A DNA stretch of 19,987 nucleotides from a virus (Duplodnaviria; Heunggongvirae; Uroviricota; Caudoviricetes), in the IMG/VR virus record IMGVR_UViG_2541047875_000009, positions 1-19,987 of that record, one strand, 5' to 3'. This document shows positions 12,467-14,526 of the stretch, in pieces. The notes under the pieces are model-generated. The model saw nothing but the letters and a program-made list of their open reading frames with translations. It made no database searches and was not told where the DNA came from. Every line of letters begins with the position of its first letter. Within the stretch, counting starts at the first letter, position 1. Position numbers and translations under genes: made by a program.

Positions 12467-14526
12467 TGTCTGATGTTTTTTCTTTGGCTCCAGAAGGTCA
12501 GGCATGGATTGACGACAAAACAGTTGCCAACCCAGCAAGGCCAGAAGACTACGATCCGACTCCCTTCCAGGGTTCAGGTACTGCACTTTTGAGCGGCGTG
12601 GCGGAGGGGGCTCTCGGTCTCGCGCAGTCTGCCGTCGGATTCAGCAAGCGCCTGATTAGCGATCCGGCATTTACCGCAGACGTGGCACCGACAGTTAATA
12701 TTTTTCGGGAGATGTTCCCTGATGCTGACAAAACACTGAATGATACATACGACACGATCGGAAAACAGTTACAGGATGCCCGCAGCTATGTGAAGCCTGA
12801 TGCAGGCAGCCAGGGAATGGCGGCTGAGGTATTAAATGAGCTTGGTAAATTTGTTCCTGCAATCGGAACAACTATGTTTGGTGGTCCGCTCATCGGCGCT
12901 GCTACAGCCTTCAGTTCTACGTATGAGCAGTCCTATCAGGATTTTAAAGGGAAGGGAGTAGACGAGGCTACAGCGCGTAACCTGGCAACGCAGCAGAGCC
13001 TTTTCAATGCTGTGGGTATGGCCTTACCCGCTGCCGTCGGCACCACACTGGCAACGCGCATTGCCTCAGGTGTGGCAATCAACACCGGATTCGGTGGACT
13101 GAACCGTTACTCAGTAGGCGCAACACTGGAGGAAAAAGGCTACACGGAGATGGCAAAACAGTACCGGGTATTTGACGGTCAGGCGATGTTAGTCGATGCC
13201 GTTTTAGGCGGGGTCTTTGGTGGCGTTCATCACCTGACTACCCATAATAACCATGATGGTACAGAGTCGAACATTTCTGCAGAAGAAATAAAATCAACTT
13301 TTGGTGAACATTATCAGCAATCTCCTGATGGTAACATTGAGTCAATGGTTCGTGATTTATCTGATTCAGGAGTAATAGAACTTATTAATGAACCAGCAAT
13401 AAAAAATAGTGATGGAGAAATACTTCTGAATAAAGGTCATGTGACAGTAGCTTCCGGAAAAGAACCAATAATAAGAATAAATATTAATGGATTAAAAGAC
13501 CATGAAGAACTGTTAGAAACCCTTCATCACGAGGCGCTTCATCTTGAGCAGCGCCATTACCCTGACTGGAAGGCCAGAAAGCTAGCTAATGCTGTACTTA
13601 AATCTGCAAACAAGCATTCTGACTATCCTGAATTTGCATATGGGATGTCACAATATTATGAATATAAGAAAAGGGGTGAGTACCCTGAAACATATCCTGA
13701 GTGGTTGTACGCTGAAGAAGTTGCCGCACATGCAGTAAATCCATCTCTAAAGACAAGCGTTTCATCATGGGAAAAAATTATTTCAGGTTTTAAAGCCTAT
13801 ATATTCAGATACAGTGGTATTCAGGTTGGAACCGTTACACCTGAGCAGTTACGGTTACTCGTAAGTATGCGTCTTCGCAATATGAAACTGGAAGCCGCAG
13901 TAGAAAAAGTTTTTGGTATCCGGGCGAGGGAAAGAATAAAACCAAGCGATATTGATGCAGCCCACATTTTGAATGAGGGGCTTCATTACGATATTGAATC
14001 GTCACCAGTGCTTCATACCAGCAATGAGAGCATCAACAGCCATGTTGACGCCATGGATGAAGCATACAGGCAACTTAATGATGGTCAGCCTGTAAATGTT
14101 GGGGGGATGGCGCGAGGGCTTGATGGTCCATTGCGATCAGATATATCTGATACTTACCAAGAGCAATACCATGAAATACAAAAGGTTTTTGAAGAAAATG
14201 GTGTCAGATACGAAACATCATCAGAGCCAATTAGTGAATCGCCTGTCCCTCGTGCTGAAAGTGCTTTCTCATCGGCTGGTGAACACAGAGGGGACATCAG
14301 CGTTGATCCAGATACAGGGCAGGTTCTCTCATCCAACAGCTATGACCTTATGGCTGCCAGGGACATGGCTGTTGCCAATCCTGAGCTGACTATAGCTCAC
14401 CCGGAAACCGGAAACCCGACAAAACTTTCTGATCTCCTGGCTGAGTTGGATGAACAGATTAAGACAGTCCAGAACGAATCGAAGGTTTATTCTGTAGCAG
14501 CAGCGTGCTTCTTGAGGAACCCATAA
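12466..14526 (+). CDS. large uncharacterised protein B (686 aa): Gly/Ala-rich hydrophobic segments and a central HExxH (zincin-like) motif
   Basis: TAATG coupling with protein A. N-terminal third has repeated glycine-zipper-like hydrophobic stretches. HEALH is encoded at 13528-13542 within an AT-rich patch. Acidic/Ser-rich C-terminus. Confidence 0.8.
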   Translation: MSDVFSLAPEGQAWIDDKTVANPARPEDYDPTPFQGSGTALLSGVAEGALGLAQSAVGFSKRLISDPAFTADVAPTVNIFREMFPDADKTLNDTYDTIGKQLQDARSYVKPDAGSQGMAAEVLNELGKFVPAIGTTMFGGPLIGAATAFSSTYEQSYQDFKGKGVDEATARNLATQQSLFNAVGMALPAAVGTTLATRIASGVAINTGFGGLNRYSVGATLEEKGYTEMAKQYRVFDGQAMLVDAVLGGVFGGVHHLTTHNNHDGTESNISAEEIKSTFGEHYQQSPDGNIESMVRDLSDSGVIELINEPAIKNSDGEILLNKGHVTVASGKEPIIRININGLKDHEELLETLHHEALHLEQRHYPDWKARKLANAVLKSANKHSDYPEFAYGMSQYYEYKKRGEYPETYPEWLYAEEVAAHAVNPSLKTSVSSWEKIISGFKAYIFRYSGIQVGTVTPEQLRLLVSMRLRNMKLEAAVEKVFGIRARERIKPSDIDAAHILNEGLHYDIESSPVLHTSNESINSHVDAMDEAYRQLNDGQPVNVGGMARGLDGPLRSDISDTYQEQYHEIQKVFEENGVRYETSSEPISESPVPRAESAFSSAGEHRGDISVDPDTGQVLSSNSYDLMAARDMAVANPELTIAHPETGNPTKLSDLLAELDEQIKTVQNESKVYSVAAACFLRNP

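Follow-up and report, generated by a model that had tools for sequence, protein, structure and literature searches.

The protein B gene and its operon

The stretch of DNA described here (the window; 19,987 nucleotides, IMG/VR virus record IMGVR_UViG_2541047875_000009, positions 1 to 19,987) was found to be Escherichia coli chromosome, 100% identical to strain MS 196-1 at a site between the genes yicC and dinD. It carries a gene for a large protein, here called protein B, whose N-terminal third contains four Gly/Ala-rich hydrophobic segments. They form the apolar helices in a conserved helical module of ~260 residues, which makes up the N-terminus of an ejection protein of the epsilon15 gp16 family. 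As judged from sequence similarity and gene order, protein B is an ortholog of gp16 of Salmonella phage epsilon15 and is encoded in an operon of podovirus internal virion proteins (IVPs). The coordinates of these features are given in Table 1.

Table 1. Features of the protein B gene and its operon, in window coordinates (aa, residues of protein B)
Feature	Residues (aa)	Position	Strand	Remarks
Upstream gene		9935..12466	+	epsilon15 gp15 ortholog, 79% identity; transglycosylase-like internal virion protein
Protein B gene	1-686	12466..14526	+	686 aa, ATG start; ortholog of Salmonella phage epsilon15 gp16 (internal virion/ejection protein; PHROG 1145)
Conserved N-terminal helical module	1-262	12466..13251	+	holds all four segments; defined by the phmmer family and the structure prediction
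Segment 1	36-59	12571..12642	+	GSGTALLSGVAEGALGLAQSAVGF; family-conserved small-residue stripe 36-40-44-48
Segment 2	127-149	12844..12912	+	GKFVPAIGTTMFGGPLIGAATAF; uncharged 25-residue stretch; family consensus GxxxGPxGxAxxxGxxxG
Segment 3	184-211	13015..13098	+	GMALPAAVGTTLATRIASGVAINTGFGG; conserved i+4 stripe R198-G202-N206-G210-R214; P188 invariant
Segment 4	245-254	13198..13227	+	AVLGGVFGGV; D244, G248, F251, and G252 family-invariant (a GxxxG)
Lineage-specific insert	263-489	13252..13932	+	replaces unrelated epsilon15 gp16 insert; HEALH at aa 355-359 (13528-13542)
Second family motif	490-545	13933..14100	+	~55 residues, PSxxDAA...APGxP...AH..A...L..GxPV
C-terminal helix and tail		14443..14523	+	ends AAACFLRNP; C681 invariant
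Downstream gene		14526..17282	+	epsilon15 gp17 ortholog, 89% identity; T7 gp16 homolog (IVP-D) per PMC4819975
3' end of operon		17282..17622	+	104-aa open reading frame (17282-17596), then strong terminator-like hairpin (17605-17622)

In BLASTP alignments with epsilon15 gp16 (NP_848224), protein B shows 83% identity over aa 1-262 (E = 3e-163) and 74% identity over the C-terminal 207 residues, aa 480-686 (E = 7e-105), and it matches PHROG 1145 with an E-value of 2.3e-136. Given the level of identity over aa 1-262, all four segments are conserved in the phage protein. The two proteins differ in their central regions, which are unrelated, and in that the protein B gene lies on an island of ~19 kb rather than in a phage genome. 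The genes that flank protein B are those of the gp13-gp17 operon of epsilon15 (Uetakevirus) and belong to PHROGs 992/1044 (gp15-like) and 684 (gp17-like). The junctions are the same as well: overlaps of 1 nt join the gp15-like gene to the protein B gene and the protein B gene to the gp17-like gene (both TAATG), and the gp17-like gene overlaps the following 104-aa open reading frame (ORF) in the same manner (TGATG). All three large ORFs are intact in the window, and both their translational coupling and the terminator have been kept. The ratio of nonsynonymous to synonymous substitution rates (dN/dS) relative to epsilon15 is 0.043 for the gp17-like gene and ~0.056 for the N-terminal module (aa 1-262; hereafter the N module), a value that indicates purifying selection on the module.

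The order gp15-gp16-gp17 is shared with epsilon15, with Pseudomonas phage YA3 and Liberibacter phage SC1, and with an intact epsilon15-like prophage of E. coli EC2. All four have these three genes flanked by the tail-tube gene on one side and the gene for the tail fibre or spike on the other, which is the place of the internal virion (ejection) proteins gp14-16 in T7. A comparison of hidden Markov models identified epsilon15 gp13 as IVP-A, gp14 as IVP-B, and gp17 as IVP-D, and put gp15 and gp16 at the IVP-C position; its authors proposed an IVP tube that goes through the membrane and delivers enzymatic passenger domains to the cytoplasm (Hardies et al., 2016; PMC4819975). A cryo-electron microscopy study from 2025 resolves the core only at low resolution and describes gp15 and gp17/16, with reference to Guichard et al. 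(2013), as parts of a packaging/injection device (PMC12391199). Table 1 of a review lists epsilon15 gp11 (229 aa), gp12 (499 aa), and gp13 (708 aa) as the equivalents of T7 gp14/15/16 (PMC8954989). These entries were left unused, since they do not match NC_004775, in which gp12 is a tail protein of ~825 aa (8645-11122) and gp13 has 154 aa. The statements of this review on epsilon15 'gp16-like' proteins are likewise to be treated with care.

Scans of the three large proteins against Pfam, NCBIfam, and PADLOC gave no match, and neither did an Rfam search of the whole window. The sole PDB sequence match of protein B, to 9fn4 (C39-like; E = 0.031), was not reproduced by the family profile and was judged spurious.

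The hydrophobic segments

The segments were first pointed out in a sequence-only reading of the region 12568-13216. This region is in frame with the protein B ORF and encodes aa 35-251; all four peptides quoted in that reading are present, with the last of them reaching 11 nt beyond 13216. The region is Gly/Ala-rich, as had been claimed: Gly and Ala account for 11.3% and 13.1% of the N-terminal 275 residues, compared with 5.8% and 8.0% of the remainder of the protein. Hydrophobicity was followed as Kyte-Doolittle hydropathy in a 19-residue window (KD19), a measure for which the classical transmembrane threshold is 1.6. Four KD19 peaks of 1.2-1.34 were found within 220 residues. When the same 275 residues were shuffled, four well-separated peaks of at least 1.15 were obtained in only 0.4% of the shuffles (p ~0.004), and the apolar residues are therefore clustered non-randomly into blocks of helix length. 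The height of the peaks is ordinary, as the mean maximum in the shuffles was 1.38 compared with 1.34 in protein B.

The same reading described the segments as resembling glycine zippers. Transmembrane glycine-zipper motifs, (G/A/S)xxxGxxxG, were reportedly described in channel-forming proteins by Kim et al. in PNAS in 2005. In protein B, the counts of such motifs are those expected from shuffling: 4 versus 3.3 for GxxxG, 26 versus 25 for small-xxx-small, and 5 versus 4.5 for the zipper (G/A/S/T)xxxGxxx(G/A/S/T). The label is thus not justified from the single sequence. Moreover, the Pfam Gly-zipper families (Gly-zipper_Omp, Gly-zipper_YMGG, and Gly-zipper_OmpA) gave no match, and the helices of protein B are less hydrophobic than bona fide transmembrane helices.

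The N-terminal module as a family

A first homolog search with the N domain gave mostly fragments. With phmmer, aa 1-275 matched 1071 of 1.84e9 cluster representatives at E<1e-3 and 435 at E<1e-10. The matching proteins longer than 300 aa have lengths of 308 to 2157 aa, and in 140 of these 142 the module begins at the N-terminus. A Pfam scan that included 80 members of the family revealed no Pfam family covering the module, and NCBIfam has no model for it either.

Conservation was assessed in an alignment of 54 relatives with 24-56% identity. At each of positions 36, 40, 44, and 48, at least 85-90% of the relatives have Gly, Ala, or Ser; the conservation of G117, G202, G210, G225, G248, and G252 is 94-100%; and P188 does not vary. 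Altogether, 30 positions hold small residues in at least 85% of the relatives, mostly at a spacing of 4 and 8 residues. The i+4 stripe of segment 3 falls within a single predicted helix (195-223), and the consensus of segment 2 and the GxxxG at 248-252 follow the same pattern. With these conserved small-residue positions, the glycine-zipper motif becomes meaningful, but only at the level of the family.

Downstream of the module, the family is highly variable. In most members the second motif follows the N module almost immediately (median gap of 7 aa), and after it comes a variable region of 69-1806 residues. The proteins end in a tail which matched AAxCFLRN by a strict pattern in 71 of the 142 relatives, and its Cys is invariant in the alignments. 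The Pfam scan of the 80 members revealed passenger domains in the variable regions, with GGDEF (12), ART-PolyVal (11), Zeta toxin (8), and DdrB-ParB (7) as the most frequent, followed by DUF3990 (3), AAA_33 (3), RelA/SpoT (1), and GNAT (1). The substrates of these passengers are cytoplasmic (GTP, NAD+, ATP, and DNA), which implies that the family must reach the cytoplasm. These passengers are hallmark domains of the polyvalent proteins, which have been argued to be injected together with phage DNA (Iyer et al., 2017; PMC5512222). With enzymes joined to their N module, the relatives of protein B resemble the polyvalent proteins and the IVPs with passengers, for example the virion RNA polymerase gp50 of phage N4 (PMC5512222; PMC4819975), and many of them qualify as polyvalent by having at least two disparate enzymatic or effector domains in a single polypeptide of the virion. 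The module itself is undescribed in these two papers. PMC5512222 makes no use of 'transmembrane' or 'glycine' and has 'hydrophobic' a single time, in the colour legend of an alignment; neither 'hydrophobic' nor 'transmembrane' appears in PMC4819975. The N module is a very widespread module, undescribed and without a model in Pfam or NCBIfam, and would merit a family definition.

Predicted structure

A prediction for aa 1-275 was made with AlphaFold2 (AF2) from a 48-sequence alignment. The model is all-alpha, with a mean predicted local distance difference test (pLDDT) score of 84 and a predicted template modelling (pTM) score of 0.73, and has long helices at aa 37-65, 87-109, 118-139, 141-162, 167-190, 195-223, and 238-263. 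On this model, each of the quoted segments is helical. In a model of the full-length protein the N module was reproduced, the second motif and the C-terminal helix were confidently predicted, and aa 268-456 had pLDDT values <50.

A Foldseek search of BFVD retrieved relatives at E-values of 2e-8 to 1e-2, all of which were N-terminal portions of phage proteins. The annotations of these matches include 'large polyvalent protein-associated domain', 'DdrB-like', and 'PolyVal ADP-ribosyltransferase', so that the structural neighbours of the module are the N-terminal parts of annotated large polyvalent proteins. In the PDB, no structural match for the N module and no similarity to solved ejectosome components were found. 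The predicted all-helical nature and, in the phage relatives, the position between tail tube and fibre are shared with T7 gp14/gp15/gp16 (IVP-B/C/D) and P22 gp7/gp20/gp16.

The family-averaged profile provided a further view of the last four helices. Their hydrophobic moment is 0.05-0.11 and their mean Eisenberg hydrophobicity 0.2-0.35. By this profile the four helices are mildly apolar on all sides and not amphipathic, an unusual property in a soluble bundle of 260 residues. Helices of this kind are suited to being buried within a membrane or at an oligomer interface.

Comparison with ejection proteins

Proteins that are ejected from the virion have to stay in solution inside the capsid and to act on membranes later, which makes them the proper comparison class for the segments. 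Such a change from a soluble to a membrane form has been documented for ejection proteins of the T7/P22 type, where it was called 'conformational gymnastics' (PMC8954989). On the same KD19 scale, T7 gp14 and P22 gp7 both reach 1.31, and the putative transmembrane regions of T7 gp16 reach 1.3-1.44, with two of the gp16 peaks at exactly the transmembrane positions given in the review (PMC8954989). The segments of protein B are therefore marginally hydrophobic and equal in strength to those of T7 gp14, T7 gp16, and P22 gp7. Tunnel proteins without such peaks have lower maxima, namely 0.84 for T7 gp15 and 0.79 for P22 gp20. T7 gp15 (IVP-C), to which protein B corresponds in gene position, has no hydrophobic segments. 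Within the family, at least one hydrophobic segment was found in all 59 full-length modules and at least two in 54 of them; 16 have a segment above 1.6, and the median maximum is 1.48.

These comparisons bear on what the segments had been likened to. The resemblance to ejection proteins holds, both from the orthology with epsilon15 gp16 between orthologs of gp15 and gp17 and from the strength of the peaks. The resemblance to tape-measure proteins finds no support, as protein B has no tape-measure match in Pfam or PHROGs and its operon is of the podovirus IVP type. Pore-forming toxins had also been mentioned; no known pore-forming domain was found to resemble protein B in sequence or in fold, and this analogy is likewise unsupported.

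The central insert

The epsilon15 sublineage, including protein B, is set apart by an insert of 160-230 aa between the N module and the second motif. In protein B the insert therefore lies before the second conserved motif and not at the usual passenger site of the family. It has ~225 aa and is unrelated to the central ~170 aa of epsilon15 gp16. It was found in only 37 genomes, all of which bear the island, and in no phage record. No homolog of the insert was detected in Pfam or the PDB (E up to 10 in both) or by a word-indexed homolog search.

The insert contains one HExxH motif, HEALH, and the sequence 'AEEVAAH' ~60 residues downstream. From this it is conceivable that the insert is a zincin-like peptidase, a type common in polyvalent proteins. 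As HExxH arises by chance in 4.6% of shuffles, this idea is only a lead. Protein B thus differs from the polyvalent proteins in having an orphan insert with HExxH and no recognisable enzymatic domain.

The island

The operon lies at the right-hand end of an element of ~18.9 kb and not in a prophage. The element is bounded by imperfect direct repeats of 24 nt, CGTGTACATA(G/A)(A/G)GGTGTACATAAT, whose copies are 18,920 bp apart. One copy is found 78-55 nt upstream of window position 1 (2921-2944 of the identical locus as extracted with its RefSeq annotation), upstream of the integrase gene, and the other at window positions 18840-18863. The repeats are candidate attL and attR sites; the insertion lies between yicC and dinD and not at a tRNA gene. 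The island encodes a tyrosine integrase, an AlpA-type regulator, AntA/BRO, Icd-like, and DUF4222 proteins, a DUF927 primase/helicase, SSB, and a ProQ/FinO protein, and also carries a PerC pseudogene. No capsid, portal, terminase, gp13, or gp14 genes were found on it.

Further genomic analysis showed that this allele is present in 37 of 5426 complete E. coli genomes. Another 17 E. coli genomes contain more divergent copies of the N module with ~75-82% DNA identity; the one inspected, EC2, holds a complete epsilon15-like prophage. The exact 686-aa protein was found in 785 blocks of public assemblies. Each of the eight contexts that were read is the same island, which occurs at three or more chromosomal sites and in combination with two or more different integrases. 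From the number of blocks and of sites, the element is mobile and successful. A related island of ~8 kb at tRNA-Pro has the same backbone and no IVP operon, and the operon therefore behaves as accessory cargo. In some copies insertion sequences or frameshifts disrupt the gp15-like or gp17-like genes: an ISL3 element interrupts the gp15-like gene, or the latter is broken up into several ORFs and the gp17-like gene into two. These broken genes indicate that part of the population carries a decaying operon. Even in such copies the gp16-like gene remains identical.

Several other genes of the operon and the island deserve mention. The 104-aa ORF at the end of the operon has two hydrophobic segments with KD19 values of up to 1.64. 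It has no relation to epsilon15 gp18, and other island copies carry it unchanged; superinfection exclusion and a holin-like role are possibilities for it. The terminator-like element which follows consists of a GC-rich hairpin and a T-run. Two genes that are intact in some other copies are damaged in this one: the BRO-N gene (window 3498-4055; 6499-7056 of the identical locus with RefSeq annotation) has an internal stop codon, and the PerC gene (window 9274-9499; 12275-12500 of the same locus) is frameshifted. A 300-aa ORF at 3895-4797 is probably spurious. Downstream of the ProQ gene lies a 138-aa ORF (8849-9265) of which aa 57-127 match the PHROG anti-repressor Ant family and aa 5-68 match a PHROG annotated 'terminase' (E = 4e-10). 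Judging from these two matches, the ORF could conceivably encode a packaging-redirection factor of the island.

Proposed role of the N module and alternatives

We consider it slightly better than an even chance that the N module is the conditionally membrane-inserting module of an ejected protein. The protein would be made late and in soluble form, and would be packed in the capsid core as a compact helical bundle. In this stored bundle, the Gly/Ala/Ser stripes at i/i+4/i+8 may allow the tight packing of weakly hydrophobic helices. Upon infection, protein B would leave the capsid by way of the portal and tail, along with gp14, gp15, and gp17 and necessarily in an unfolded or extended state. 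The marginally hydrophobic helices could then partition into one of the host membranes, most probably the inner one, where the inserted hairpins may oligomerise through the same small-residue faces and form or buttress part of a trans-envelope DNA conduit. The region that follows the module would thereby become cytoplasmic; this is the enzyme passenger in the relatives, and would here be the orphan insert with HEALH. For the copy on the island, we infer packaging in the virion, ejection, and insertion into a membrane, as well as the membrane concerned.

A number of observations weigh against this role. No segment reaches a KD19 of 1.6, and sums on the Hessa translocon scale are strongly unfavourable (at least +5 kcal/mol; +5.2). 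On the Wimley-White octanol scale the sums are about -0.9 (minimum -0.91) and -0.5 kcal/mol for segments 2 and 3. The integral membrane proteins GtrC and SieA of P22, used as controls, gave KD19 values of 2.2-2.8, octanol sums of -12 to -16, and Hessa sums of -1.3 to -3.9. By standard criteria, then, the segments are not constitutive transmembrane helices. The conserved charged or polar residues R198, N206, R214, D237, and D244 lie inside or next to them. In addition, four hydrophobic segments are clustered near the C-terminus of the gp17-like protein itself (aa 710-870), and on the octanol scale (down to -3.5 kcal/mol) they are more favourable than any segment of protein B. With this stronger cluster, gp17 may be the main inner-membrane component, which would leave gp16 with a periplasmic or core role. 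Comparison of the family alignment with T7 gp14, T7 gp16, P22 gp7, and P22 gp16 by hhalign gave probabilities of only 0.1-0.2%. The N module thus shows no detectable homology to these four ejectosome proteins; it has no structural match in the PDB and is a distinct family without a solved structure. A search of the accessible literature, which did not extend to the primary epsilon15 papers, found no membrane-association experiment on gp16.

The AF2 model of the N module as a compact globular helical bundle also belongs here. Taken literally, this model comes close to a buried core of a soluble fold, the outcome that the sequence-only reading had set against membrane association. It does not decide the matter, because soluble stored forms and membrane forms are known to coexist in ejection proteins.

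The module could be purely soluble, a bundle in the core stack and/or in the periplasmic ejection tube that is equivalent to IVP-C (T7 gp15) and never inserts into a membrane; we regard this as a tentative alternative, on the unlikely side. The Gly/Ala stripes would then serve only the close packing of helices and the conformational switching required for passage through the portal. The confidently predicted bundle, the hydrophobicity below the transmembrane threshold, the Arg, Asn, and Asp residues conserved within the helices, and the stronger cluster of the gp17-like protein are all in accordance with such a role. Moreover, gp15 and gp16 have been placed at the IVP-C position with gp17 as IVP-D (PMC4819975), and T7 gp15 builds a periplasmic tunnel without transmembrane helices (PMC8954989). 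However, T7 gp15 and P22 gp20 have no peaks comparable to the four of protein B, four consecutive helices are non-amphipathic, and the passengers of the relatives need cytoplasmic substrates, so that some part of these proteins must cross the inner membrane.

A different question is whether the island gene serves particles of its own element at all. It could be the decaying remnant of an epsilon15-like prophage. Alternatively, it could serve as a decoy or for interference, with products that co-assemble with an epsilon15-like phage, whether incoming or already resident, and poison or hijack it. In either case the segments would simply have been inherited. The lack of capsid, portal, terminase, gp13, and gp14 genes speaks for this view, as do the position of the IVP operon at the accessory end of an AlpA/DUF927-primase island of which a relative has no operon, the gp15-like and gp17-like genes that are split or disrupted by insertion sequences in some copies, and the BRO-N and PerC pseudogenes in this one. 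Nevertheless, we find this improbable, since the three large ORFs are intact with their coupling and terminator, the dN/dS relative to epsilon15 is ~0.05 (though much of this divergence may have arisen before the island acquired the gene), the exact protein is found in 785 blocks with the island at no fewer than three sites, and PADLOC shows no defence match. Lastly, it is most improbable that the segments arose by accident from the composition of a Gly/Ala-rich region and have no specific role: the motif counts and the ordinary peak height would agree with this, but four separated peaks are rare in shuffles, and the conservation of their positions down to 24% identity over hundreds of clusters, with invariant Gly and Pro, excludes chance.

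Significance

To our knowledge, the passage of DNA from short-tailed phages across two membranes is structurally understood only for T7 and, increasingly, for P22. Phages of the epsilon15/BPP-1/LUZ24 type have a different middle component, gp16. Protein B belongs to a known class, the podovirus internal virion proteins with passenger regions. In this class, the combination of weak hydrophobicity, small-residue stripes, and passengers that act in the cytoplasm suggests a testable role for gp16, that of a conditionally membrane-inserting translocator for passenger domains. The N module also provides a handle for the annotation of many 'hypothetical' virion proteins.

Compared with the hydrophobic segments themselves, the satellite-like context of this locus is more unusual. 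The element looks like a phage satellite with ejection-protein genes as cargo, and a literature search found no description of satellites that encode ejection proteins. One speculative and rather unlikely scenario is that the island is a satellite of epsilon15-like podoviruses whose own gp15, gp16, and gp17 replace those of the helper in hijacked capsids. The N module of gp16 would then act as a general membrane-translocation device which carries the HEALH insert into the cytoplasm of the next host. The island context suggests that operons of ejection proteins can be mobilised independently of phage genomes, which bears on satellite-helper biology and on superinfection interference. If the satellite scenario is true, a satellite that encodes its own DNA-delivery machinery would be new, and so would a widespread, uncharacterised 'translocator plus cargo' module found in more than 1000 clusters.

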